Made by a program: the position numbers and the translations under genes. Below, in pieces: positions 3,804 through 62,225 of a DNA stretch of 64,000 nt; position 1 is the stretch's first letter, and every line of letters starts with the position of its first letter. The notes beneath the pieces are model-generated. The model was not told the origin of the DNA. It saw only the letters and a list, made by a program, of their open reading frames with translations, and did not search any database. The DNA lies in assembly GCA_965224245.1 (NCBI GenBank), contig OZ245046.1:5824001-5888000 (forward strand). The letters run 5' to 3'. This DNA is from Candidatus Eiseniibacteriota bacterium (GTDB lineage: Bacteria > Eisenbacteria > RBG-16-71-46 > CAZAMP01).

Positions 3804-6455
3804 CTACGACGTCGGCTGCGGGAGCCTCCGCGCGACCGACACGATCCGGAGACGCCGCGGACCATCTTCCAGCGGCACCGTGACCTCGTCGCCCACCTTG
3901 TGGCCACGCAGCGCGGCGCCCAGCGGGGCCCGGTACGAGATCACGTCGTTTCCGAGGAAGGTGTCGCCCTCGCCCAGGATCCAGTACGTGTGCGTGGACC
4001 CGTCGGCCAGGTCCTCGGTCACGACCTCTCGACCCGGTCCGGCCACCGTGTCGTCGAGGGCCATCTCCTCGATCGCGCGGGCCTGGGAGATGAGCTGCTG
4101 GAGCTGCTGCACCCGCTGACCGAACTGGCGCTGCTTGTCCTTGGCGGCGTGGTACTCGGCGTTCTCCTTCAGATCGCCCAGCTCCATCGCGCGGCGGATC
4201 GTGGCCGGGAGCGTGGTCTTGAGGGCCGTCTCCAGCTCCAGGATCTCGTCCCGAAGTCGTTCCATGCCGGCGCGCGTCATGAAGATGCCGGCCTCGCCCT
4301 CGTCGGCGTCCCCGCGCACGACGAACTCGGCCGACTTCTCGGAGCGGTCGCGGTGCACCTCCTCGACCACGTTCCGGGCTCCGGCCATCTCGATGAAGTC
4401 CAGGATCGGGAAGAGCAGGCGATCGGTCGTGCGCCAGGACGTCAGCTGGGTGACCAGGAGCTGGTGACCCTCGTCGTCGATCGGGTGGTCGGCCAGGACC
4501 TTCACGAACGGACCGCTCAGCTTGAGCTGAGCGAGAGCCTGACGGCGCGGCGGCTCCTTTGCCGCGCCGTGAATGATGGCGATCAGCGCACGTAGCGCGA
4601 ACCAGGGATCCTCGATCGCGACCGGGACCGCGTCGGGCGCCGAGACCGCGAACTCCACGAGTCCCAGGATCCGGTTGGCGTCCTGGGGCGACCGGCTGAA
4701 GAGCTCGCGCACGAAGCGACGGACCTCGTCGGGCGGCTCGCCGCCCAGCAGCTCGGCCGCGTGACGCCGGACGTTCTCGTGGCGCGACGGGAACGCGGCG
4801 AGGGCGGCTACCATCGTCAGTCCCATGTCGTGGGCGACGTCGACGAGCTCCATCTGCTCGACGTCCAGCGACGTGAACGAGAAGTCGCCCCCTGCGGCGA
4901 GGAGCTCGCGCAGCTCCTCGCGGAACGACTGATCGAGCCCCCGATCCCAGCGACGCAGCACGGCCAGGATGTGCACGCGCGCCTCGTGGCGCTGGCTGGT
5001 GCCCAGCCACTGGGCCAGCCGGGGGCGGTACACGCGGCGGGCCTCACTCTCGGCCTCGGGATGCTGGATCAGGAAGTGGTGGATCATCTCGAGGTTCTGA
5101 TGGAGGTCCGAGCGCTCCTGGATCGGCGGGAGCAGGGACGCATCGCCGGCGGCGTCGGCCACCCGGTAGACCCGGCGGAACGTCTGGCTGGTGTCGATGC
5201 GGGCGTCGTCCTTCGCGGCGGTCGTCGCCCTCTTCCACCACGCAGGCCAGGACTGCGCCGACATGACCCGCGGCACGAGCTGCTTGCGAACGTCGGCGCT
5301 CGACGCCTCGCCGCCGGCCTTGACCAGCGCCAGGCTCAGGAGCTCGACCGGGTCCTTCTTGGCCATCGTCTTGATCCCGTCGAGATCGGTGAGGATCTTC
5401 GTCATCAGATCGTCGGGGGGGAGGATGTCCAGGGAGCGCTCGGCGATGCTGAGGCTCATCCGATGTCCGCTCTTCTCGTCGAAGTCGATGACGAGGCTGT
5501 CGCCGTCGTTGTCCTTGATCGTGCCGGCGCCGAAGCCCTGGTGAATGACGAGCAAGCCGGGTGCGAACTTGAGCAATCGATCGTACTCCTTGAGCGCCGT
5601 CTTCGCCGGCACGTCGCTGTTGCCCAACCCACTGCGCTCGAGGATCTGCTCGATCGATGCCAGGCTTCGATGTCGATGCGTCGCCACGGTCGTGGCGAAG
5701 GCGCGGATCTTCCGTGTGGATTGGCCGATCTCCATCAGTCGCCGGAGCGAGTCCCAGACGGTGTCGAGCATGCCGAGCGGAGCGAGGTGCTCCATGCCCA
5801 TCTCGAGGAAGCTGTTGAGCGGCTTCGGCTCGCCGTGCTTGGCGAGGTGGGTGACCGCGTCCCAGATCTGCTCCCAGTGATCGGCGTCGGGCGTCTCGAT
5901 GACCTGGAGGATGGCCTCCTCGACGCGCTCGACCGCCTTGGCTCGGGCCCATCCGGGCGCCGCGGCGGCAAAGAAGCTGTCGGCGTTGCCCTCGCCCGCG
6001 TCGGCCAGGCGCGTGCCCTTCAGCCACAACAGGCGGTGGCTGTCCGGCGCCAGCTCCAGCGCCCGGTCCAGTGTCCCTTCCGGGAGGACGTCCACGCTGC
6101 CCTCCTCGCCGGCCCGGGCCACGTAGCGGCAGAAGCCGGGATCGCCGGCCAGGTCGGCGATCCCGATGGCCAGCCGCCCCAGCGCGGCCCACTCGCCCTG
6201 CTGATTGAGGTTCTCCAGGGTGGCCGCGAGCCGCTCGGCGTAGATGGGGTCGGTCCCGTCGAGCGCCGCCATCAACGTGAACGCGAAGCGAAGCTGGGGC
6301 GTGGCGCCGCCATCGGCGGCGGCCTCCGACAGCTCCTGGAGATCCTCCGAGATCGTCCCGGCCGACAGCGAGCCGCGGACCGCGTCCATGAGCGAGTCGA
6401 TGAGGGACTCGTCCCAGCCCGTGGCGCTTCGCAGCTGGATGATCAGCGTCTCCAT
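3804..6455 (-). CDS. greA: GreA/GreB transcription elongation factor with ~730-aa N-terminal extension
   Basis: C-terminal AMELGDLKENAEYHAAK and ISYRAPLGAALRG motifs; GGAGG RBS before ATG 6455. Confidence 0.85.
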   Translation of the reverse strand: METLIIQLRSATGWDESLIDSLMDAVRGSLSAGTISEDLQELSEAAADGGATPQLRFAFTLMAALDGTDPIYAERLAATLENLNQQGEWAALGRLAIGIADLAGDPGFCRYVARAGEEGSVDVLPEGTLDRALELAPDSHRLLWLKGTRLADAGEGNADSFFAAAAPGWARAKAVERVEEAILQVIETPDADHWEQIWDAVTHLAKHGEPKPLNSFLEMGMEHLAPLGMLDTVWDSLRRLMEIGQSTRKIRAFATTVATHRHRSLASIEQILERSGLGNSDVPAKTALKEYDRLLKFAPGLLVIHQGFGAGTIKDNDGDSLVIDFDEKSGHRMSLSIAERSLDILPPDDLMTKILTDLDGIKTMAKKDPVELLSLALVKAGGEASSADVRKQLVPRVMSAQSWPAWWKRATTAAKDDARIDTSQTFRRVYRVADAAGDASLLPPIQERSDLHQNLEMIHHFLIQHPEAESEARRVYRPRLAQWLGTSQRHEARVHILAVLRRWDRGLDQSFREELRELLAAGGDFSFTSLDVEQMELVDVAHDMGLTMVAALAAFPSRHENVRRHAAELLGGEPPDEVRRFVRELFSRSPQDANRILGLVEFAVSAPDAVPVAIEDPWFALRALIAIIHGAAKEPPRRQALAQLKLSGPFVKVLADHPIDDEGHQLLVTQLTSWRTTDRLLFPILDFIEMAGARNVVEEVHRDRSEKSAEFVVRGDADEGEAGIFMTRAGMERLRDEILELETALKTTLPATIRRAMELGDLKENAEYHAAKDKQRQFGQRVQQLQQLISQARAIEEMALDDTVAGPGREVVTEDLADGSTHTYWILGEGDTFLGNDVISYRAPLGAALRGHKVGDEVTVPLEDGPRRLRIVSVARRLPQPTS

Positions 6456-6610
6456 CCGGACGACCTCCAACGATATGGGCCTGTTGAACGGCGGAGCATG
6501 ATGCCAGAAAGCCCGCGCGGGCGCAACGGACGTGGACCGCCCGCCCGGGCATCACGGCCGTCGCCCCGGGCCGGGTTGTCACGCGCGTCGATTTGCCGAT
6601 AATGCGTCGG

Positions 6611-8276: not shown

Positions 8277-10154
8277 ATGGGAACGAGATTCTACAGGCCC
8301 GCCGCGCTGGTCACCGCGCTCGCGCTGGCCGTCTGCGCCTGCGACCGCGACCGGAAGCCGGAGACCGGGTTCGAGGCGGACTCGCGACCGACCTTCCAGG
8401 CCCACGATCCGTACGAGGAGCTGAGCCTCGTCGACTGGCGCCCGTGGAGCGACGATCTGTTCGGGAAGTCCAGGAAGCCGGTCCTGCTGGACATCAGCGG
8501 CAAGTGGTGCCACTGGTGCCATCTCTACGACGAGACCGTCTACGCGAACCGTGAGCTCGCCCGGTACATCTCCGAGCACTTCGTCCCCGTGCGGGTGGAT
8601 CCCGATGCGCGACCCGACATCGACTCCCGGTACAACCACGGCGGCTGGCCCACCCTGGTCGTGCTGACCCCCGACGGCGACGTCATCCGCGGCACGACGT
8701 ACGATCCGGACGGCGTGCAGGCGTTTCTCGAGCGGGCGCTCGAGGGCTACGCATCCATCGCCGACTCGACCCGCACGCAGATGCTCGAGGCGAGGCGCAA
8801 GCTCGCCGAGGCACAGCCGTTCCTGCGCGAGCAGAGCGAGCTGGACGGCGACGTGCGCCGGAAGGTCGTCACGGGGCTCCGGCGGGTCCTGGATACCGAC
8901 TACGGTGGCTTCTCGGGCATCGCGGGCGGTAATCGGAAGCTGGCCTCGGCGGGCGTGCTGGCCGTCATGCTGCGCGAGATCGACCCCCTGTCGGCGATCG
9001 ATCCGGCGTTTCAGACCTGGCTGGAGGTCACGTGCACCACGATGGCGCGCGGCGCCGTGCACGATCACATGTTCGGGGGGTTCTTCCGCTCCACCGAGGA
9101 TCGGGCCTGGTCGATCCCGCACTTCGAGAAGCTCCTGTCGGTCCAGGCCGACATGATCGATCTCTACGTCCTCGCCGCGCGCCGCTGGGACGATCCGCTG
9201 CACCGTGACGCGGTCCGCTCGACGGTCGACTTCGTGATGACGACGCTGGCCAACCCCGACGGGGTCACGTTCGCGAACGCCGTCGATCCCGACCTCGGCC
9301 CCGGTGACGACGGCAGCTTCTACACCTGGACCGTGTCCGAGGTGGACTCGCTGGTGAGCCCCGAGGAGGCGCAGGTCTTCAAGTTCCACTACGGGATCGC
9401 CCCCTCGGGAGAGGTGCCGACGAGCCCCGATCGGAACACGATCTACGAGACGTACTCGATCGACGAGGCGGCCCAGCGTCTCGGAATGGAGACCGCGACG
9501 TACGCCGCGGTGCTCGAGCGTGCGACGACGCGCCTTCGTGCCGCGCGCACCAGCGGCCCGCGACCGCGCGTCGACACGAACGCCTACGCCGCGGCCAACC
9601 TGCGCGTCGCGTCGGCGCTCCTGGGCGCGTCCCAGGTTCTCGACGAGGTGAGCTACCGCGAGCGCGCCATCGCCACCATCGACTTCTTCACCACTGCGAG
9701 CGGAGACTGGGGCACCGGCATCCCGCACGGATACGACGGGAAACGGTTCGTGGGCCCCAACGTGCTCGAGGATCAGGTGGCCGGGCTCGAGGCGTTGATT
9801 CGCGCCTACGCCGTCACGGACGACGACTCGTACCTGGCCCGCGCGAGGGAGCTCGAGGCCAGGATCCGGCTCGCGTATGCGAACGACGTCGCCGGTGTGT
9901 TCTGGGACGTGCCGATCATCGCCACCGGACCCGGTCGCCTGATGCTGAAGGACCGGCCCCTGACGTTGAACGTCCGCATGGCCGATTGTCTGATGGACCT
10001 CTACGCGGCCACGCTGGAGGACACCTACAAGCAGCTCGCCGAGCGCACGTTGGAGTCGTTCGCGCAGTCGTTCAGCCAGTCGGGTGTCGAGTCGATCCGC
10101 TACGCCAACGCCGTGCACCGGCTGCTCTGGGAGCTGCGCGCCCGCTCGAGCTGA
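8277..10154 (+). CDS. Thioredoxin-domain DUF255/YyaL-like protein with predicted lipoprotein signal
   Basis: WCHWCH, GGWPT, GGFFR, PHFEKLL, GSFYTWT motifs; N-terminal LALAVCAC; AAGGAG RBS. Confidence 0.85.
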   Translation: MGTRFYRPAALVTALALAVCACDRDRKPETGFEADSRPTFQAHDPYEELSLVDWRPWSDDLFGKSRKPVLLDISGKWCHWCHLYDETVYANRELARYISEHFVPVRVDPDARPDIDSRYNHGGWPTLVVLTPDGDVIRGTTYDPDGVQAFLERALEGYASIADSTRTQMLEARRKLAEAQPFLREQSELDGDVRRKVVTGLRRVLDTDYGGFSGIAGGNRKLASAGVLAVMLREIDPLSAIDPAFQTWLEVTCTTMARGAVHDHMFGGFFRSTEDRAWSIPHFEKLLSVQADMIDLYVLAARRWDDPLHRDAVRSTVDFVMTTLANPDGVTFANAVDPDLGPGDDGSFYTWTVSEVDSLVSPEEAQVFKFHYGIAPSGEVPTSPDRNTIYETYSIDEAAQRLGMETATYAAVLERATTRLRAARTSGPRPRVDTNAYAAANLRVASALLGASQVLDEVSYRERAIATIDFFTTASGDWGTGIPHGYDGKRFVGPNVLEDQVAGLEALIRAYAVTDDDSYLARARELEARIRLAYANDVAGVFWDVPIIATGPGRLMLKDRPLTLNVRMADCLMDLYAATLEDTYKQLAERTLESFAQSFSQSGVESIRYANAVHRLLWELRARSS

Positions 10155-13873: not shown

Positions 13874-16771
13874 CTAGCGCCGCGAGCCCGGCCTCCGCGC
13901 CGAGCGTGCCCCGGGCTTTCGGGTGACGGCGCGTCGTGCGGGCGCGTGCGCGTGCCCGGGTCGTGCTTCGGCCGGGCGACCCCACCGCTTCAGATGAGCG
14001 GCCAGGTGTCGTCCGGTCACCGAGCTCGCGTTCGCGGCGATCTCGTCGGAGGTTCCGGTCGCGACCACGCGACCGCCACCGGCGCCCCCCTCGGGACCCA
14101 GATCGATGACGTGGTCCGCGCGCGCCACGACGTCCAGGTTGTGCTCCACGACGACGACGGTGTGTCCCCGATCCAGCAGCCGCTCGAAGGCGCGCAGGAG
14201 ATTGCCGATGTCGCCCACGTGCAGCCCCGTCGTGGGCTCGTCGAGAATGAAGAGGTTCGTGCCGCGCGTCGTCCTGGCCAGGTGGCTCGCGATCTTCAGC
14301 CGCTGCGCCTCGCCGCCCGACAGCGTGGTCGCCGGCTGCCCGAGCCGGAGGTACCCGAGGCCGACCTCCGCGAGGTGCCACAGCGGCCGCGAGATCGCCG
14401 GCGTGTCGGCGAAGAACGAGATCGCATCGGTGACGGTCATCTGGAGAATCTCGTGGACGTTCTTGCCGCGGTACCGTGCCTCGAGAATCCGGGCCTGATA
14501 GCGGCGGCCGCCGCAGTCGTCGCACGTCACGAACAGATCGGCGAGGAACTGGAGCTCGATCCGGATCGAGCCGGCCCCCTCGCACGTCTCGCAGCGCCCG
14601 CCCGCCACGTTGAACGAGAAGTCGCCCGGCGAGAGTCCGAGCCTCGACGCGTCCCGCGTTCCCGACAGGAGCTTCCGGATGCCGTCGAACGCCTTCACGT
14701 ACGTGACCGGGTTCGATCGGGGCGTGCGGCCGATCGGTGATTGATCCACGAGCAGCATGTCGTCGATTCTCGCATGTCCCGACAGGCGCTTCAGCGGCGC
14801 CGGGGAGGCGCCGCCCGGATCGCGCTCGGCGCGGTAGTTCCGGTACAGCGTCTCCTCGACGAGCGTGCTCTTGCCCGATCCCGAGACGCCGGTCACGCAG
14901 ACGAGTCCTCCCAGCGGAACGTCCACGTCCACGCCGTCGAGGTTGTGACCGCTCGCCCCGCGGATGCCGATCACGGGTGCGCCGGTCAGGTCGCGCCGCG
15001 TCATGGGCGGCAGCGTCTGGCGGCCACTCAGGTACGCCGCGGTGGAGCCGGGAGCGTCGGTCTCCAGCGCGGCCGGGTCGCCCTCGTAGACGATCCGTCC
15101 GCCGTGCTCGCCGGCGCCCGGTCCCAGATCGATCACGTGATCGGCGGCGGCGATGATGTCGCGGTCGTGCTCGACGACGACCACCGTGTTGCCGCCGTCG
15201 CGCAGCTCGGTGAGGATGCCGAGGAGCCGATCGTTGTCGCGGGCGTGAAGGCCGACCGACGGCTCGTCGAGCACGTAGAGCGTGTCGACCAGACCCGATC
15301 CCAGCGCCCCGGCCAGGAGGATGCGCTGATACTCGCCGCCCGACAGGCTGCGGCTGGATCGGTCGAGCGTGAGGTAGTCGAGCCCGGCCCGCTGCATGAC
15401 ATCCAGACGCCGCACGATCTCGGTCACCAGCGGCGCCGCGGTCTCTCCCGCGCGGCCGTCCAGCGGGAGCGCCTTCCAGAACGCGAGCCCATCGGTGACC
15501 GACATCCGACACACGTCGGCGATCGACCGGCCGAGGACCTCGAACGCGAGCGCCTCGGGTCGGAGCCGCGTGCCCCCGCACGCGTCGCAGGTGACGTAGC
15601 GGCGATGCCGGCTCAGGAACACCCGCACGTGGAGCTTGTAGATCTTGGCCTCGAGCGCCTTGAAGAATCCGCGCACGCCGGGGAAGTCCGGGGTGCCGTC
15701 GAAGATCGCGCGCCGATCGGTCTCCGGGAGGTCTTGCCAGGGAACGTCCGTCGGAATGCCGGAATCGGAGGCGAACGCCATCAGACGGCGCCGCCACTTC
15801 TGTCGCGCCGCGCTCTGCCAGGGCGCGACGGCGCCGCGGGCCAGGGATCGTGAGGGATCGGGGACGATGCGATCGGGGTCCAGGTCGATGATGTCGCCGA
15901 AGCCCCGGCATCTCGGACACGCGCCGGCCGGGCTGTTGAACGAGAACGCGAGCGGGCCCGGATCCGTGTACGCGCGGTCACATTCCGCGCAGTGAAACCC
16001 ACGCGAGAGTCGAACCGGCCGCGGGCCGTCGAGGAACACGGCCGCGCGGTCACCGCCCTCGGAGAAGGCGGCGTCGAGCGCCTCGGCCAGGCGCTGGCGG
16101 TTCGACGGCGCCAGCCGGAGCCGATCGGACACCACGAACGTCGGCGGCGAGTCGTCCGGGCCGACGGTGGCCACCGCGTCGCGCACGACGGGCTCGTGGA
16201 GATCGTCGATACCGGTGCCGTCGGTCGTGACGCGATAGAATCCCCGGCGCACCAGCGCGTCGAGCGCGCTCTCGCTGCGATCGATCACCGGAAACACGAC
16301 GGACGCCCGCTCGCCGGCGTGGGCATTCAGGAGGCGGTCCACGTTGGAGACGGTCGTGTCCCGCGTGACGACGTTCCCGCATCCCAGGCACCGGAGCACG
16401 GAGGCGCGAGCGTAGAGCATGCGCAGGTAGTCGAGGATCTCGGTCACGGTCCCCACCGTCGATCGGCTCGTCTTCGCCGGCGGCTTGCGCTCCACCGCGA
16501 TCGCGGGCGGGATCCCGCCGACGGTATCGACGTCGGGCCGGTCCATCCGCTCCAGGAACTGACGCGTGTACGCCGAGAGCGACTCCACGTACCGCCGTTG
16601 TCCCTCGGCGTAGAGCGTGTCGAAGGCCAGGCTCGACTTGCCCGATCCGGAGGGGCCGGTCACGACGACGAGCTTCCCGCGCGGGATGTCGACGTCGAGG
16701 TTCTGCAGGTTGTGCGTGCGCACGCCTCGTAACGAGATCACGTTCGAGGCCGGCGGAGCGTTCGGCGTCAT
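13874..16771 (-). CDS. uvrA: Excinuclease ABC subunit A
   Basis: Two Walker A (GPSGSGKSS, GVSGSGKST), LSGGE signatures, CxxC zinc fingers, IGRTPRSNP. Confidence 0.96.
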   Translation of the reverse strand: MTPNAPPASNVISLRGVRTHNLQNLDVDIPRGKLVVVTGPSGSGKSSLAFDTLYAEGQRRYVESLSAYTRQFLERMDRPDVDTVGGIPPAIAVERKPPAKTSRSTVGTVTEILDYLRMLYARASVLRCLGCGNVVTRDTTVSNVDRLLNAHAGERASVVFPVIDRSESALDALVRRGFYRVTTDGTGIDDLHEPVVRDAVATVGPDDSPPTFVVSDRLRLAPSNRQRLAEALDAAFSEGGDRAAVFLDGPRPVRLSRGFHCAECDRAYTDPGPLAFSFNSPAGACPRCRGFGDIIDLDPDRIVPDPSRSLARGAVAPWQSAARQKWRRRLMAFASDSGIPTDVPWQDLPETDRRAIFDGTPDFPGVRGFFKALEAKIYKLHVRVFLSRHRRYVTCDACGGTRLRPEALAFEVLGRSIADVCRMSVTDGLAFWKALPLDGRAGETAAPLVTEIVRRLDVMQRAGLDYLTLDRSSRSLSGGEYQRILLAGALGSGLVDTLYVLDEPSVGLHARDNDRLLGILTELRDGGNTVVVVEHDRDIIAAADHVIDLGPGAGEHGGRIVYEGDPAALETDAPGSTAAYLSGRQTLPPMTRRDLTGAPVIGIRGASGHNLDGVDVDVPLGGLVCVTGVSGSGKSTLVEETLYRNYRAERDPGGASPAPLKRLSGHARIDDMLLVDQSPIGRTPRSNPVTYVKAFDGIRKLLSGTRDASRLGLSPGDFSFNVAGGRCETCEGAGSIRIELQFLADLFVTCDDCGGRRYQARILEARYRGKNVHEILQMTVTDAISFFADTPAISRPLWHLAEVGLGYLRLGQPATTLSGGEAQRLKIASHLARTTRGTNLFILDEPTTGLHVGDIGNLLRAFERLLDRGHTVVVVEHNLDVVARADHVIDLGPEGGAGGGRVVATGTSDEIAANASSVTGRHLAAHLKRWGRPAEARPGHAHAPARRAVTRKPGARSARRPGSRR

Positions 16772-17107
16772 GTGTCGTCCTGGCGGGGAGAGAACGGTGA
16801 CCACGAGCGGCCGATTGTCCTGCGTCGCACCATCCGGCGCAACGTCGCGGCGCCCGGCCGCGTCCCGCCACGCGCGGGCCGGCGGGCGGCACGAGGCTCG
16901 GGCGGATACCCACGCACCGGTCGCCGCCGGGTACGAAGTACCCACACCAACATGCTGCAGGAGAACGGTTTGTGCGAGAACTGGCTACTATGGGCACCCC
17001 GGTCCCGGATCCGGCCTCCGATCCGGGGTTCCCGATCCCGCGGCACCGGGCTCTCCAAGCGTGTGCGGTCGAGGAGCTTGGGCGGATCGAGGCGCTCCTC
17101 GGTCCTT

Positions 17108-17123
17108 TGGCACACTGCGTGCA
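17108..17123 (+). promoter_or_regulatory. Putative sigma-54 (-24/-12) promoter
   Basis: TGGCAC-actgc-gTGCA: exact GG-N10-GC spacing, in an intergenic region. Confidence 0.7.
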
Positions 17124-17131
17124 ATACGACA

Positions 17132-17385
17132 GGGCAGCGTGAGGCGCCGGCGGGATCTGGAAGAACCGCGACCTGTTTCCCAACCCCGGCAGTCTAGCAG
17201 CTCCTTCTCTTGGCAGCGGTCGGAGCTGTTCGTCGCGGTTCTTCCAGATCCTGCTGGCGACCTCGCCAGAGCCCTCGTTGCTGTTGTCTTGCAGAGTCAG
17301 GACCGACGGCCGGTGCCTCCGCTCTTCTTCAGGCGTTGGGGTACTAGCCTCCCGACGCCTGGGGACCGCGGCCGTGGGCTTTTTT
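17132..17385 (+). ncRNA. Candidate structured non-coding RNA (~250 nt), family unknown
   Basis: 32-bp stem 17141-17172/17232-17264 with G-U pairs valid only on + strand; inner hairpin 17196-17230; 3' hairpin 17306-17375 then T6. Confidence 0.65.
17306..17385 (+). terminator. Intrinsic terminator-like hairpin closing the candidate RNA
   Basis: ACGGCCG/CGGCCGT outer and AGGCGTTGGG/CCCGACGCCT inner stems followed by TTTTTT (17380-17385). Confidence 0.6.
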
Positions 17386-17488
17386 CGTGCCCCCGAGGCG
17401 CCCGTCATCCCGGTCGCGTAAGATGCCGCCGGGCCGGACCCGCCGGCCGCATCCCACGCGAGATCCACGACCGAGACGGGCACCCCTC

Positions 17489-19936
17489 ATGCCGCCACCG
17501 ATTCGTTCCGACCGCGATCCGGTTCCGACGAGCACCTCGGCACGCGCCGAGATCGGGCTCGCCATCGTGGCGTCGAGCGTTCTCACGCTCGCGATGGTCG
17601 GTGCGCTCCTCTCGCTGGGGGTCTCGGCGCTGTCACTGAACGCGTCCTCCTCGGCGCCGCTGCCCCATGGACCGACCACGGTGCTCCGCGTCACCATCGC
17701 AATGGCGCTCGGCTACGCGGGCGTCTTCGCGCCGGTCGGGCTCATCGTGGGCGTCGTCGTCGCTCTCGTGCGTGGCCACGCGATCGCGAGGCGGCCGGGA
17801 CCGCGGACCCTCGCGCGGGCGGCGCTCGCGTTCGTCGGGCTGGAGGCGCTCGTCGTGCTGAGCGCGCCGTGGCTGGCCGACCTGCTCGACGGCGAGCGGC
17901 GGGTCGTGGCGGCCGTGGCGGCCGGCACCGCGCTGGCCGTGCTGCTGGCGGTGATCGTCGTCCGGCTTCCCCGTGAGGGACGTCACCCCGCGTGGGACCG
18001 CATCCGCATGGCCGTCCTGTTCGCGGTGGCGGTGCCGGTGGGCGTCGCGGTCGTCGTGAGGTCGACGTCCGAGCCACGCCCGGCCGCGGCGACCGAGCCG
18101 TTTCCACCGCTCACGCGCGCGTCGTCCTCCGGCATCGCGCTCCTGGGAGTCGACGGCGCGGACTGGATCACGCTCGATCGGCTGATCGCGGCCGGTGTGA
18201 TGCCGAACCTGGCCCGTGCGCGAGAGGACGGCGCCGCCGGCGATCTGTACGTCCGGTTTCCGTTCACGCCCCCGTCGTGGACGACGATCCTGTCGGGCGT
18301 GGACGATCACACGCACGGGATCGTCGCGTTCGCCGGGCAGGTGGACGCGTGGGGAGACCTCGTTCGCCGCCCGCGCATTCACGACATCACGGCGCGAGTC
18401 CTGAGCGAACGTCGGCAGCTCCCTCCGCCGCCGGCCATCATCGGGTGGCTGTCGGCTCCGGCGGACCTCGCCGCCGTCGCCTACGCCCGCGCGATCCATC
18501 CGTTCGATCGGCCGCTGGTGCTGCTGGACGCCACGCACGTCGCGTTCAAGCGGCTCTGGCAAATCGCCGAGGATGCCGGACTCGCGACCGGGACGTTCGG
18601 GGTCGATCTCAGCTGGCCCGCCGAGCAGGTGCGCGGCTTTCTCGTCTCCGATCGGTTCGTGCGGGGTGAGCGGGCGGACGCGGTCTACCCCGACCGGCTG
18701 GTCATGCCCCTCGACGCCCTCGCGATCGGCTCGCCCGACGCGATGGCCGATCCGGGCGACACGCCCTCGATCGATCCCGGCGGCCGAGATGCGGACGTCT
18801 CCGGCTCGCGCGAGGCCGAGACGGCGTTCTTCGTGCGAACCGCGCGGCGTCAGCACCGCGAGTGGCTCGAGGAGCTCCGGATGGCGCGCCGTCTCTTCGA
18901 GACCGAGTGCGACGGGCTCGACCTCGTCACGCTGAAGTTCCGCCAGCCCGACACGATGAAGCACTACCTCCTGCCGTTCCTGAGACCCGACGCGTTCCCA
19001 TGGCTCGACGTCTCACCCGACGCGAGCGCCGCCGTGCTCGAGGTGCTTCACGACGCCTACTACGAGCTGGATCTCCTGATCGGAGAGATCCGCGACGCCG
19101 GGTGGACGCTGTGCATCGTCTCGGACCACGGTTTCTATCCGAACCGGGCGGAGTCCCCGAGACAGGACAGCGTCTCGCTCGACGCAGACACGCTGCTCGA
19201 TCGACTCGGATGGCTCGTTCGGGGTGAAGACGGGGACATCGACTGGACGCGAACGCGCGCGTACGACCCGGGCACCCCGACGCCGGCGGAGACGAGCGGC
19301 CTCCGGCTCAACCTCCGGGGAAGGGAGCCGAACGGCGTGGTGCCCGTCGCCGAGCGCGCGTCCGCGCTCGAGGCGCTCGTGCGCGACCTGGGGTCCGTCC
19401 GGTACGCCGACTCGGGCGAGCCCGTGTTCACGACGATCGAGACCGATGCCGCGGGCTTCGACGTGGTGGTGCGCCATCCGCTCCGGCGGCCGCTTCGCGA
19501 CGTGCTGGAGCCACTCACGCGTCGCGTGGTCGTGGCCGGCCGCTCCGCGCCGATGAGGTCGGTGTTCGCGTTGCATCCGACCTACGGGGGTCACCGGGGT
19601 GGCACCGACGTCGCGGGGTACGGCCCGGCCGTCCTGCTCCTGTGCGGTCCCGACGTGCGCCGCGGCGTGACGCTGGAGAGCGCGGAGGACCTGGACGTGA
19701 CGCCCACGATCCTGCGGCTCCTCGGCGTTCCGCTGTCGGCGGAGCTCCAGGGACGGGTGCTGGACGAGGCGCTCGCGCCGGCGTTCCTCGAGGCTCACCC
19801 GATCACGACGGTTCCGGGCTACGGCCCGCACCGGTTCGACCCCGAGCTCCTGGCGAGGGCACGCGCGGGCGGCGGCAGCGAGGCCACACGCAAGGAGATG
19901 GTGGATCGGATCCGGGCCCTCGGCTACCTGAACTGA
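17489..19936 (+). CDS. Membrane-anchored alkaline phosphatase superfamily (phosphodiesterase-like) protein
   Basis: ~5 N-terminal TM helices; LLGVDGADW, TPPSWTT..SG, VSDHG, DVTPTIL, C-terminal IRALGYL; start approximate. Confidence 0.85.
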   Translation: MPPPIRSDRDPVPTSTSARAEIGLAIVASSVLTLAMVGALLSLGVSALSLNASSSAPLPHGPTTVLRVTIAMALGYAGVFAPVGLIVGVVVALVRGHAIARRPGPRTLARAALAFVGLEALVVLSAPWLADLLDGERRVVAAVAAGTALAVLLAVIVVRLPREGRHPAWDRIRMAVLFAVAVPVGVAVVVRSTSEPRPAAATEPFPPLTRASSSGIALLGVDGADWITLDRLIAAGVMPNLARAREDGAAGDLYVRFPFTPPSWTTILSGVDDHTHGIVAFAGQVDAWGDLVRRPRIHDITARVLSERRQLPPPPAIIGWLSAPADLAAVAYARAIHPFDRPLVLLDATHVAFKRLWQIAEDAGLATGTFGVDLSWPAEQVRGFLVSDRFVRGERADAVYPDRLVMPLDALAIGSPDAMADPGDTPSIDPGGRDADVSGSREAETAFFVRTARRQHREWLEELRMARRLFETECDGLDLVTLKFRQPDTMKHYLLPFLRPDAFPWLDVSPDASAAVLEVLHDAYYELDLLIGEIRDAGWTLCIVSDHGFYPNRAESPRQDSVSLDADTLLDRLGWLVRGEDGDIDWTRTRAYDPGTPTPAETSGLRLNLRGREPNGVVPVAERASALEALVRDLGSVRYADSGEPVFTTIETDAAGFDVVVRHPLRRPLRDVLEPLTRRVVVAGRSAPMRSVFALHPTYGGHRGGTDVAGYGPAVLLLCGPDVRRGVTLESAEDLDVTPTILRLLGVPLSAELQGRVLDEALAPAFLEAHPITTVPGYGPHRFDPELLARARAGGGSEATRKEMVDRIRALGYLN

Positions 19937-23636: not shown

Positions 23637-23677
23637 ACAAAGCAACGGCGAGACCGGGAGGGCACCGGTCTCGCCGT
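23637..23677 (-). terminator. Intrinsic terminator-like hairpin
   Basis: Perfect 13-bp stem 23645-23657/23665-23677 followed on - strand by TGCTTTGT. Confidence 0.6.
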
Positions 23678-23786: not shown

Positions 23787-25211
23787 TCAGTCCAGATAGC
23801 CCAGCGAGCGCAGCAGCTCGCGATACGCCTCGTCGTCACCGGAGCTGACGGGGAGCGCATCCTCCGGCGATGCCTCGAGCCGGTAGGGAGGGGCGGTCAC
23901 GGCCGGGCGCCGGACGAACCCCGGCTCGAACAGCCCGGTCAGCACGTCGCCCTGGAGGTCCTCGCCGATCGGCTCGCCCATGGCGTAGAGCAGCGTGGGG
24001 ACGACGTCGTAGACGCTGCCGTCGACCTCGGCTCCCGGCGCCACGCCATAGCCCCACGCGGCCAGGATCCCCTCCAGCCGATGCCAGTGCGGGTTCGCGG
24101 CGTGGAGCCCGTCCCCGATGTGGAGCTTCTCCCCGGATTCGTTTTCCCCGTACCCGTGGTCGGACACGATCACGATCGTCGTGCTGTCGTCGGCCATCGC
24201 GATCAGCTCGGCGAGCGTGTCGTCCACGAACCGGAACGCGCGTTCGAAGTTCTCGCCGACGTACTGCGCGAAGTCGGGGGGCATGTTCTTGGGCGGGTCG
24301 GTCCAGCGCGTGGGCTCGCCGAAGCGCGCCCAGCGCGAGTAGCGCCAGCTGTCCCAGAAGTAATGCGCCATCACGTCGGGAAGCTCGAGGTAGAGCGTGA
24401 AGAAGTCCGGCCGTACCGACGGCACGAGCCGACGGGCCATGCGCACGAAGGTGAGGTCCTTGGCGTACACGTCGGCCACGGACGGACCGCGGTTGTCGAC
24501 GGTCCCCAGCGGACCCGACACGTCGACGCGCGTGGCCTCGGCGACCGATCCCCGGCTCAGGTCACGCCGCGTGACGATCTCCGACGCGATGCCGTCGTAG
24601 AGGGTCTCCGGGTAGGTTCGACGGTCGAGCTCGGGGACCTCGTGCGACGTCACCGGCATGCCGTGCTCGCTGAACGTGATCGGCCACGTGCGCTCGGAGA
24701 CGAGGAATCCATCGACCGGGGTGGCAGGCCACGTCGTCCACCAGCCGATCACCCCCACGGTCCGGTTCCGGGATGAGAGCATGTCCCACAGCCTCGGAGC
24801 GCGGACGAGGTTGCTCGTGACGGGGATGGGCTTGCCGTCCACCGGAACCGTGAAGCTCTGGATCCCGTGGACCTCCGGAGGCTGACCGGTCGAGACCGTG
24901 GCCCAGACGACGGGTGAGAAGATGGGCTCGATGGTCCGCAGCGTCCCGTGGGCGCCTTCGCGGAGCACGCGCTCCCAGGTGGGCAGTGCCCCGTCGGCGA
25001 TCAGGAGATCGATCACGGTCCAGTCCGCGCCGTCGACCGCCAGCAGCATCACGCGCGGGGCCGGCGGCACGGGCGGAGTGCGATCGCAGGATCCCAGCAG
25101 GGTCGAGAACGCCAGGGGCGCGAGCGTCGCGAGCGCGCGCCGGGCCGTGGCGCGTCGCCTCGCGCGCCGGCGCACGTCGGGGACGCTCGGTGACGGCAGC
25201 GTGAACGTCAT
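23787..25211 (-). CDS. Alkaline phosphatase superfamily (phosphodiesterase-like) lipoprotein
   Basis: LLGSC lipobox; LAVDGADW, SPVVWAT..TG, VSDHG, DVVPTLL, LRSLGYL. Confidence 0.87.
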   Translation of the reverse strand: MTFTLPSPSVPDVRRRARRRATARRALATLAPLAFSTLLGSCDRTPPVPPAPRVMLLAVDGADWTVIDLLIADGALPTWERVLREGAHGTLRTIEPIFSPVVWATVSTGQPPEVHGIQSFTVPVDGKPIPVTSNLVRAPRLWDMLSSRNRTVGVIGWWTTWPATPVDGFLVSERTWPITFSEHGMPVTSHEVPELDRRTYPETLYDGIASEIVTRRDLSRGSVAEATRVDVSGPLGTVDNRGPSVADVYAKDLTFVRMARRLVPSVRPDFFTLYLELPDVMAHYFWDSWRYSRWARFGEPTRWTDPPKNMPPDFAQYVGENFERAFRFVDDTLAELIAMADDSTTIVIVSDHGYGENESGEKLHIGDGLHAANPHWHRLEGILAAWGYGVAPGAEVDGSVYDVVPTLLYAMGEPIGEDLQGDVLTGLFEPGFVRRPAVTAPPYRLEASPEDALPVSSGDDEAYRELLRSLGYLD

Positions 25212-60290: not shown

Positions 60291-61814
60291 TCAGCGGGGC
60301 ACGACCACCAGCTTCGTCACCTGCGCGCGCGTCCGACCCCTCGCCGTCCCGGAGGCGGGCGAGGCGTCGGTCCCCCGATCCGAGACCCGTAGCCAGTAGA
60401 CACCGGGCGCAACCGGGCTTCCGGAGGCGTCGCGGGCGTCCCACGTCACGGTGTTCCATCCGTTCCGGGCGTCGAGGCGTTCGGCCAGGACGCGGACCGA
60501 TCGGCCCGTCGCATCGAAGATCTCGACGCGGACGCGATCTCCGGGCGCGGCCAGGAAACGGACCAGGACCGAGGATCGGAGCGGGTTCGGCGACGCGGAG
60601 ACCGCCGGCGTCTCACTCATGGACGCGTCGCCGACGTCGACGACGCCCGGGCGCGAGATCACGAGGTCGGCGGGCGGCAATCCCACGTCGACCGGTGCGC
60701 CCGTGAGCGGCGCGCCGGAGCTCGCGTCGAACACGCGCACGCCGGGTGCCGAGACGTCTCGGACCCCGAGGAAGAGCGTGCCCGTCGGCGCGTCGCAGTC
60801 CATGGCCTCGGTGTACGACTCGGTGGTGTACACGATCGGTCCGAGCGCGCCGGACGTGTCGAACCCGCGGAGGTCGGTGGTGAAGAAGAAATCCGTCGAC
60901 GACAGGACGAACCCCGTCGTTGCCGAGCACATGGTGAGACAGCCGACGTCACCCCCCAGCGCCGATTCGGTCACCACGAGCCCGAGATCCTGAAGCGTCT
61001 CGGTGTCGACGACGTCGATCCCGCCGTCGAGCGCCCCGTAGCTGCCGACGCAGGCCACGTAGAGACGGCGCGAGATCGGGTCGAGCTCCATCTTGCACAC
61101 GGGGTTCGTGCCGGTCAGCGCGATGGCCTGCGTGCCCGGCGCGACGGGATCCGCGTCGACCAGCGTGTCGGTCGAGACGTCGATGACGGCCAGATACGAC
61201 GGCGCCACCGGCGTGTAGAACGCGTCCCGATCGAGCCGCTGCACCTGGACGAAGAGGCGGTCGTCCGCGAGGGCCATCGCGTTCAGCTCGGGCAACCCGT
61301 CGGCATCGGCGAAGGCACCGAGATCGATGCCGCCGGTGACGGTGCCGCTGGATGGATCGACGATCAGCACGTCCGTGCCGTCGTACGCGCTCACGTATGC
61401 CTTCGTCTCGGAGACGACCACGATGTCGTGCGGGTTCGTGCCGGCGCCGGTCGAGAACTGGCGCACCGTCGAGAACGAGGCGGGATCGATGACCTGGACG
61501 TTGTCCCCGAGGAACCGGTTCACGACGTAGTGCCGTCCGAAGAAGTGACGCACGATGGGATCCGAGCCGACCCCCTCCACGTTGACGTCGGCCGACCATG
61601 GCGACTCGATGTCCACGGCCGAGGAGCTGCCGGTGGCGCCGAAGTCGGTCGTGACCACGAACACGTGGGGCTCGAAGCCGGCGGACGCCGGCGACGGCCC
61701 GAACGGTGAGCCGGGGCCCATCGCGAGGAGGACGAGCGTGGCCGCGAGCCGGCGAGCGACACCGACGCCGAATCGTGTGCCGGGGCGATCGTGAGGGCGG
61801 GGACGCGGGATCAT
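60291..61814 (-). CDS. Secreted YncE/BtuG-like beta-propeller protein with C-terminal FlgD Ig-like domain
   Basis: YVVNR..DNVQVID, NPHDI...KAYVS repeats; PNP..IFDATGR..WDARD..PGVY tail; AAGGAG RBS; downstream of B12 riboswitch. Confidence 0.8.
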   Translation of the reverse strand: MIPRPRPHDRPGTRFGVGVARRLAATLVLLAMGPGSPFGPSPASAGFEPHVFVVTTDFGATGSSSAVDIESPWSADVNVEGVGSDPIVRHFFGRHYVVNRFLGDNVQVIDPASFSTVRQFSTGAGTNPHDIVVVSETKAYVSAYDGTDVLIVDPSSGTVTGGIDLGAFADADGLPELNAMALADDRLFVQVQRLDRDAFYTPVAPSYLAVIDVSTDTLVDADPVAPGTQAIALTGTNPVCKMELDPISRRLYVACVGSYGALDGGIDVVDTETLQDLGLVVTESALGGDVGCLTMCSATTGFVLSSTDFFFTTDLRGFDTSGALGPIVYTTESYTEAMDCDAPTGTLFLGVRDVSAPGVRVFDASSGAPLTGAPVDVGLPPADLVISRPGVVDVGDASMSETPAVSASPNPLRSSVLVRFLAAPGDRVRVEIFDATGRSVRVLAERLDARNGWNTVTWDARDASGSPVAPGVYWLRVSDRGTDASPASGTARGRTRAQVTKLVVVPR

Positions 61815-61997
61815 GACGGGACTCCTTCCGTCGACCGGACGTGGGTGAACGAAAGGCGCGCGGAGTGACGGGGCCGTTGCGTGAAGAGAGGACATCACGC
61901 GCTCGGACCCCATGGCCCATCGATCGGAATCCACGCCGAGGATGAGCATCACCACGCGGGCACGTCGCTGCACCCGGCCGCGCGCTTGCGCGCGCAT

Positions 61998-62225
61998 CCT
62001 CTTCGGGCAGGTCTTCTGGCTTCCGGGTCGTCCTCGCCTCACGCCTTCCCACGGCACGTCGCGCTCGGGGCGCGGCCGCAGTGGCTCTGTTGTGAGGGTC
62101 GTCGCCGGTCACAGCGGCGGGTCCGCGACGGTTTCGCACCGTCTTCCCTCGCGCCCGTCACGATCGCATTCGATCGCACGCGGCACGGTCGCACGTCGGT
62201 CTCGACGCACGGGACCCGAAGAGGC
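61998..62225 (-). promoter_or_regulatory. Cobalamin riboswitch
   Basis: On - strand: AGGGAA-GACGGTG-CGAAA-CCGTC, CCCGCCGCTGTGA, GCCACTG, GGGAAGG, B12 box AGCCAGAAGACCTGCC; P1 CTCTTCGG/CCGAAGAG. Confidence 0.93.

Follow-up and report, generated by a model that had tools for sequence, protein, structure and literature searches.

GlmY, Qrr1-5 and CrcZ are regulatory RNAs with -24/-12 promoters and an enhancer-binding protein that activates them. They are built from several short stem-loops or A-rich motifs rather than from a duplex of 34 bp. Sigma-54 dependence of such small RNAs (sRNAs) is described for glmY (PMC3162934) and for Qrr (bioRxiv 10.1101/2021.07.01.450815). NrsZ of Pseudomonas aeruginosa is an NtrC/RpoN-dependent sRNA that is processed to forms of ~40 and ~140 nt and is described as three similar small forms (PMC4253122). 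Here we describe a candidate sRNA gene that resembles these systems in its predicted promoter type and differs from them in its predicted fold. It lies in a 64-kb stretch of DNA (the window) from a Candidatus Eiseniibacteriota bacterium (contig OZ245046.1, positions 5,824,001 to 5,888,000), in the 717-bp gap between the divergent genes uvrA and a phosphodiesterase-family gene.

Read along the + strand, this gap contains a sigma-54-type -24/-12 motif, then a duplex of 34 bp whose tip bears two hairpins and, past a pyrimidine-rich linker, a 16-bp hairpin followed by a run of six T residues (T6) (Table 1). The original prediction had described a gap of ~720 bp without a convincing open reading frame (ORF). 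This description is accurate: the G+C content of third codon positions (GC3) is ~0.9 in both flanking genes, and their codon periodicity vanishes at ~16800-17480. We reasoned that three rare features in the right order, on one strand and within at most 280 nt of non-coding DNA make a case for an RNA gene, a judgement that is post hoc. The sequence supports a unit that is non-coding, co-oriented and sharply bounded, consisting of the motif, an extreme fold, a hairpin and the window's only T6. We tentatively favour the reading that this unit is a stand-alone gene for a structured sRNA of ~250 nt, of the sigma-54 type and of a family not yet described. It is a good single-sequence candidate, and we do not claim a proven RNA; its transcription, its dependence on sigma-54, its ends and all of its functions are what we infer.

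Table 1 Features of the candidate RNA locus, in window coordinates
Feature	Position	Strand	Remark
Sigma-54-type -24/-12 motif TGGCAC-N5-GTGCA, TGGCACACTGCGTGCA	17108..17123	+	Sole exact match in window
Predicted non-coding transcript, ~252 nt	17134..17385	+	Predicted ends; -145.1 kcal/mol, z = -8.0; no codon periodicity; no Rfam match
5' domain: duplex of 34 bp (28 and 6 bp on either side of a 1-nt bulge; 3 G-U) below a branched tip	17139..17266	+	Pair probabilities 0.999-1.0
Tip of 5' domain: small hairpin 17173-17177/17188-17192 and 9-bp hairpin 17196-17204/17222-17230	17173..17231	+	Minimum-energy fold
Pyrimidine-rich linker with weak hairpin 17280-17291/17298-17310	17267..17314	+	Alone only -7.7 kcal/mol
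3' domain: 16-bp hairpin on an ill-defined base stem ending beside the T-run	17315..17379	+	Fold
T6, presumed U-tail of an intrinsic terminator	17380..17385	+	No other run of at least five T or A in 64 kb

The two arms of the duplex, 17139-17172 and 17232-17266, are near-perfectly complementary. They pair in a long helix of 28 bp with two G-U pairs (17145-17172/17232-17259) and, beyond the 1-nt bulge, in a short helix of 6 bp with one G-U pair (17139-17144/17261-17266). The long bulged stem with 20 consecutive Watson-Crick pairs that had been proposed is thus present at its coordinates, the uninterrupted pairs being exact (17153-17172 with 17232-17251), and the duplex as a whole comprises 34 bp. 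The inner hairpin proposed at 17196-17230 was also recovered, with 9 bp, and the tip around it exposes unpaired C/U-rich stretches and an unpaired UCUAGC. A closing helix had been placed at 17133-17139/17276-17282; this pairing is possible (seven pairs, two of them G-U), but the minimum-energy fold uses 17131-17135/17271-17275 instead. The second hairpin, said to end in T6, corresponds to 16 bp at 17326-17341/17350-17365 (four G-U pairs; probability 0.93-1.0), with base pairings that extend to 17379, immediately before the T-run, and with ACUAGC in its loop. CTAG occurs 10 times in the window, and 8 of the 10 coincide with ORF ends, as stop codons. The other two, at 17194-17197 and 17344-17347, both fall in predicted unpaired parts of the RNA, namely the UCUAGC and ACUAGC just mentioned. 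CUAG is self-complementary, and a loop-loop contact or a common protein site is conceivable from the modelled fold.

We compared folding energies with those of dinucleotide shuffles (n = 200 per test). The segment 17130-17390 folds at -147.7 kcal/mol (z = -6.58) and the predicted transcript, as 17134-17386, at -145.1 kcal/mol (z = -8.00); in neither case was any of the 200 shuffles as low. Across the window, we folded both strands of 1063 windows, each 261 nt long (2126 window-strands), with energy regressed on G+C. The lowest GC-corrected residual of all, -44.6 (sd 8.1), belongs to a window that begins at 17101 and overlaps the target, whose own residual is -38.9. By raw folding energy the locus ranks only 22 of 2126, because it is less GC-rich than its surroundings (G+C of the window is ~70%). 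The preceding part of the gap, 16940-17135 (196 nt), is unstructured (z = -0.22), so the structure begins where the motif predicts the start of transcription; its onset is ~5 nt past the predicted start.

The original prediction also held that the G-U pairs orient the structure to the + strand, in agreement with the promoter motif and the terminator. Consistent with this, G-U pairs make up 15 of 95 pairs in the + fold and 4 of 82 in the - fold, and mirroring the + structure onto the - strand retains 80 of the 95 pairs at a cost of 36.8 kcal/mol. When inverted repeats were found strand-blind, all three mismatches were G-T on the + strand, for which the chance is 1 in 8 if transitions are random, and this is the strand of the motif and the T-run. 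We conclude that the G-U bias modestly favours selection on a + strand RNA.

The inverted repeat could instead matter as DNA. According to this alternative, it is a mobile or repeat element, small and non-autonomous, of the Correia, ERIC or REP kind, or else a protein-binding palindrome, with a chance -24/-12 match beside it and an RNA hairpin as a mere side effect. Its two 28-nt arms, 59 nt apart, show 93% complementarity and include 20 perfect pairs, the total of ~125 bp is in the size range of such elements, the - strand folds well too (z = -5.26), and the -24/-12 motif alone is not significant. Correia and ERIC/REP-type repeats resemble the candidate in being units of ~100-150 bp with terminal inverted repeats that give long RNA hairpins, and the Correia element, as described in PMC2649163, is able to generate promoters and is a target of RNase III, which binds or cuts it. 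However, such elements are multicopy by definition, whereas the candidate is present once in 64 kb, and no copy turned up in other loci (1.39 Mb) or in the plasmid and phage collections. There is no flanking direct repeat of the kind left by target-site duplication; the flanks are inverted, and pairing goes on beyond the arms in the closing helix. Conservation of the arms is highest at the inner rather than the outer ends, every mismatch is G-T on one strand, and a DNA-level element would leave the adjacent terminator domain, with its second hairpin and unique T6, unexplained. We consider this origin unlikely, and less probable than the leader discussed below.

In the -24/-12 motif, GG (17109-17110) and GC (17121-17122) are spaced by exactly 10 nt, and a start near 17134, ~12 nt past the GC, is predicted. 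The motif had been reported as TGGCAC-N5-gTGCA, and our scan confirmed it. It agrees at 10 of 11 specified positions with the sigma-54 consensus TGGCAC-N5-TTGCW, as quoted in PMC4253122. The first base of the -12 block is the position that differs, and in the proven sigma-54 sRNA promoter of nrsZ, TGGCACAGCCCCTGCA, this base is also not T (PMC4253122). NrsZ is like the candidate in further respects, being intergenic, of a similar size class and preceded by TGGCAC-N5-xTGCA (TGGCACAGCCCCTGCA as compared with TGGCACACTGCGTGCA). In contrast to NrsZ, the candidate has no repeated modules and consists of one long duplex plus a terminator domain, and the two show no sequence or model match. A second 10/11 match in the window, at 55093-55078 (-), lies inside a coding region and was rejected as a promoter, which leaves TGGCACACTGCGTGCA as the only high-scoring -24/-12 site outside coding DNA. 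Since the motif alone is statistically weak, its significance comes from its position and orientation and not from the motif itself. A sigma-70 promoter for the candidate RNA was rejected as well, because a scan of 16600-17700 returned 0 sites.

Sites of the same type were seen near uvrA in other genomes. In an Eisenbacteria metagenome-assembled genome (locus L046, 6655-9800), TGGCACAGCACGTGCA (9579) comes after genes for a PAS histidine kinase and for a sigma-54 activator of the NtrC type. Next are a 22-codon ORF rich in Lys and Ala (9702-9767) and a hairpin with a T-run; the whole array is a short way upstream of uvrA. TGGCACAGCACGTGCA is almost identical to the motif in the window, shares GTGCA as its variant -12 block and stands in a convincing sigma-54 setting; the locus is not homologous to the candidate RNA. 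Four Nitrospira loci (L013, L015, L023 and L029, - strand) carry a near-identical -24/-12 motif, TGGCATCTC(A/G)CTTGCT, at most 10 kb from uvrA, which is probably a conserved sigma-54 promoter.

The original prediction had credited the RNA with an enhancer architecture of its own, and this part of it was not borne out. Besides the lack of structure in the upstream DNA and of an activator gene nearby (see below), a repeat considered as an enhancer proved to be at chance level. The motif TTCCnGATCCnGC, the sole one that recurs upstream, is found at 17003 and 17029, and also in both stem arms. It has 8 matches in the window (4 of them in the gap) where 2.0 are expected, a count that has to be read knowing that the pattern was derived from those same sites. 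In a control with 174 further segments of 359 nt from the window, 15 aligned to the stem arm equally well or better, and we rejected the repeat as chance. A cluster of GATC sites was likewise rejected as a signal, as GATC is common (775 in the window). For the proposed sigma-54-dependent structured non-coding RNA, the sequence supports the motif, the fold, the strand bias, the lack of a known family and the single occurrence in the window, and does not support the enhancer.

At the other end of the unit, T6 directly follows helices that end at 17379, so that a U-run of at least five stands next to a hairpin, as expected of an intrinsic terminator. The stable 16-bp hairpin itself ends 14 nt short of the T-run, whereas in a canonical terminator a simple GC-rich stem with a loop of 3-8 nt would adjoin it. 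A terminator at T6 is plausible from the model but non-canonical. Elsewhere in the window, perfect GC-rich hairpins followed by T-rich tracts (TTGCTTTG and TTTTCGTT) occur just past gene ends, at 23645 (-) and 30600 (+). These look like ordinary intrinsic terminators in a genome nearly without T-runs, and from such sites after other genes the organism appears to use intrinsic termination.

Given that the RNA is co-oriented with the phosphodiesterase gene and lies directly upstream of it, the same structures can be read as the 5' leader (356 nt) of that gene. The leader would be made from the same sigma-54 promoter, its duplex would be of the RNase III or stabilising type, and its terminator would stop most transcripts, such that read-through or processing of the duplex sets the level of the enzyme and the short terminated RNA is a by-product. 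In line with this, we found no separate promoter-like site between T6 and the start codon, a point that carries little weight as the sigma-70 scan was empty throughout 16600-17700. The phosphodiesterase gene is surrounded by envelope-type genes (for a glycosyltransferase, a second Phosphodiest protein, a PIG-L deacetylase and a signal peptidase), and sigma-54 regulons are described as biased to the cell exterior (PMC3162934). Moreover, as long as the 3' arm has not been transcribed, the 5' arm of the terminator can pair locally in another hairpin, 17315-17323/17332-17342. However, the terminator hairpin is strongly favoured (pair probability 0.93-1.0): the fold without its 3' arm is 26.4 kcal/mol worse and leaves only this nine-pair local alternative. 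Terminator and antiterminator folds of comparable stability are absent in the model, and no riboswitch-like switch was evident. The 34-bp duplex is static and joins no alternative fold, no Rfam riboswitch or leader family matched, and the start codon lies 103 nt beyond T6. The phosphodiesterase lacks close relatives in which a joint occurrence of leader and gene could be traced: among 8000 scored candidates from 5.8 billion clustered proteins, the 815-aa protein had two matches with E <= 0.001, one of which is itself and the other 43% identical over 9% of the query. We regard the leader as the next most probable explanation after a stand-alone sRNA gene, though an unlikely one.

A third alternative places a small protein gene in the gap. 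An ORF of 56 aa with a GTG start (16972-17142) would contain the -24/-12 match by accident within its coding sequence, and the hairpins and T6 would form its structured 3' untranslated region and 3' end. There is weak codon-like periodicity at 16980-17100 (G+C at first and second codon positions ~0.8 and 0.50-0.55, and GC3 0.75-0.80), a Shine-Dalgarno-like GGAG (16960-16963) lies 8 nt upstream of the GTG, and the stop codon (17140-17142) abuts the foot of the duplex. However, this GC3 is well under the ~0.9 of the flanking genes, and no promoter-like site was found upstream in the scan of 16600-17700. Among 1.84 billion representative proteins the ORF had a single match (E = 5.7e-5), which spans 19 residues of a 290-aa protein, and it was assigned to no family. 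A protein gene here is thus very improbable. Beyond the sRNA gene and these three alternatives, the remaining case is that the structure has no function at all.

Family searches agree with the earlier statement that the RNA could not be assigned to a known family. With Rfam 15 (4227 models, among them GlmY, Qrr, CrcZ, 6S, riboswitches, HEARO, OLE and ROOL), the sole gathering-level match in the window was a cobalamin riboswitch at 61989-62173. At E <= 10, the region 16700-17600 gave six matches, the best with E = 0.5, all of them miRNA-type or unrelated and far below threshold. The GlmY, Qrr and CrcZ models did not match the candidate even at this cut-off, nor did any 6S model, and ARAGORN found no tRNA or tmRNA. 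Like the candidate, 6S RNA is an abundant-type structured RNA of ~200 nt with a long hairpin. It is defined by a large central bubble, whereas the duplex of the candidate is continuous over 34 bp. Pattern, blastn, nhmmer and covariance-model searches with the stem arm, the whole gap and 17131-17282 detected no further copy within the 64 kb, and collections of plasmids and phages contained no similar sequence.

Several observations weigh against a sigma-54-dependent sRNA gene. The first concern regulation. glmY, qrr1, crcZ and pxr adjoin their activator genes, and a Pfam scan of 91 ORFs in the window found neither a sigma-54 activator (Sigma54_activat) nor an RpoN domain; an activator encoded outside the 64-kb window is possible and compatible with the data. 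The nrsZ gene also adjoins its activator gene, ntrC (PMC4253122), in contrast to the lack of one among these ORFs. No enhancer-like site could be demonstrated upstream of the motif. Sites agreeing at 10 of 11 positions are expected 0.40 times per window, and at least one appeared in 30% of 200 simulations, against the two observed; sigma-54 is reported to occupy many non-productive sites in E. coli (PMC4591121).

The others concern the RNA itself. A consensus terminator scan of 16600-17700 gave 0 sites, and the helix expected to abut the U-run is ill-defined in the ensemble, with several competing base-stem versions (probability <= 0.002 each). The difference in energy between the + and - strands, 17.6 kcal/mol, is equalled or exceeded in 146 of 1063 windows, and we rejected a strand call by energy alone for this reason. 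Complementarity of the RNA to the start regions of uvrA and the phosphodiesterase gene is ordinary, ranking 140 to 709 of 840 background windows, and pairing of the open segments with these regions was rejected as being at background level. A 20-bp perfect palindrome is also the look expected of a young DNA-level repeat. Finally, the search for relatives with nhmmer and BLASTN that the original prediction had suggested yielded no homologue. We retrieved related loci via UvrA (at least 596 pattern matches, at least 567 confirmed) and kept 80, with the source genome not among them. Searches of the window and these 80 uvrA loci (1.45 Mb) by blastn, by nhmmer and with a covariance model built on the one sequence of 17131-17282 recovered nothing but the locus, on its two strands; the best matches elsewhere had E = 0.006 (blastn, 34 nt), E = 2.7 (nhmmer) and E = 0.7 (cmsearch). 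As no homologue was found, the RNA has no support from conservation or covariation.

The genes on either side were assigned as follows. uvrA occupies 13874-16771 on the - strand, with its start ATG at 16771, and UvrA domains were found in its product. The phosphodiesterase-family gene (17489-19936, + strand, ATG at 17489) encodes an 815-aa membrane protein whose translation is identical to the database entry, and whose Phosphodiest domain is that of type I phosphodiesterase/nucleotide pyrophosphatase, of the alkaline-phosphatase type. The second Phosphodiest gene lies at 23787-25211 (-). A perfect palindrome, GGTAC-GAA-GTACC (16930-16942), is unique in the window and lies upstream of both the uvrA start codon, at a distance of ~160 nt, and the -24/-12 motif, at ~190 nt. 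By its position it could be a uvrA operator of the SOS type or an activator site, and the evidence favours neither.

In one protein encoded in the window, a type IX secretion system (T9SS) sorting domain scored above cut-off; domains of the FlgD_ig and LVIVD types were seen as well. Judging from these domains, the host looks like a diderm of FCB type; sigma-54 is described as near-universal in the diderm phyla with lipopolysaccharide and as absent from Actinobacteria and Cyanobacteria (PMC3162934). The nearest relatives of its UvrA, in the set of 5.8 billion proteins, are 65-67% identical and come from metagenome contigs, and the UvrA proteins of the loci retained (80 of at least 567 confirmed), which are from GTDB representatives, have 41-53% identity and represent many phyla. 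The source lineage thus seems to be poorly sampled and phylogenetically isolated. Two further observations concern other parts of the window. The cobalamin riboswitch (- strand, 75.3 bits) is directly upstream of a gene (60291-62057) with a T9SS C-terminal sorting domain, whose product, from this linkage, may be a secreted or surface B12-related protein. An ORF of at most 888 aa (3804-6470, - strand) has a GreA/GreB domain at its C-terminus and fits long 'transcript cleavage factor/unknown domain fusion' models.

If the locus is a stand-alone sRNA gene, RNA polymerase with sigma-54 would bind TGGCAC-N5-GTGCA, and an enhancer-binding ATPase encoded elsewhere would activate transcription from near 17134. 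The RNA would fold immediately into the 34-bp duplex with its two-hairpin tip, the pyrimidine-rich linker and the 16-bp hairpin, and transcription would end at the U6 tail, at ~17385. Hints to function are limited to a duplex of double-stranded-RNA length, the open C/U-rich stretches and two exposed CUAGC motifs. The long 5' duplex may protect the 5' end, or may be recognised by RNase III or some other protein that binds double-stranded RNA, and the unpaired C/U-rich stretches and the two CUAGC loops may contact a protein or targets such as purine-rich ribosome-binding sites. A bolder version, to which we give little credence, is that the RNA is the first example of a class, not yet described, of sigma-54-controlled regulatory RNAs in a deep-branching, uncultivated lineage of FCB type, with the duplex serving as an RNase III gate or as a decoy for a double-strand-RNA-binding protein and the CUAGC loops as recognition sites.

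Were the element a leader or a repeat instead, it would be ordinary. A perfect RNA duplex of two to three turns is unusual among bacterial trans-acting sRNAs. If the favoured reading is correct, a poorly known and isolated lineage would have a sigma-54-dependent sRNA whose main body is such a duplex. The duplex would then suggest a partner in RNase III or a double-strand-RNA-binding protein, and the RNA would provide a handle on sigma-54 regulons outside Proteobacteria.

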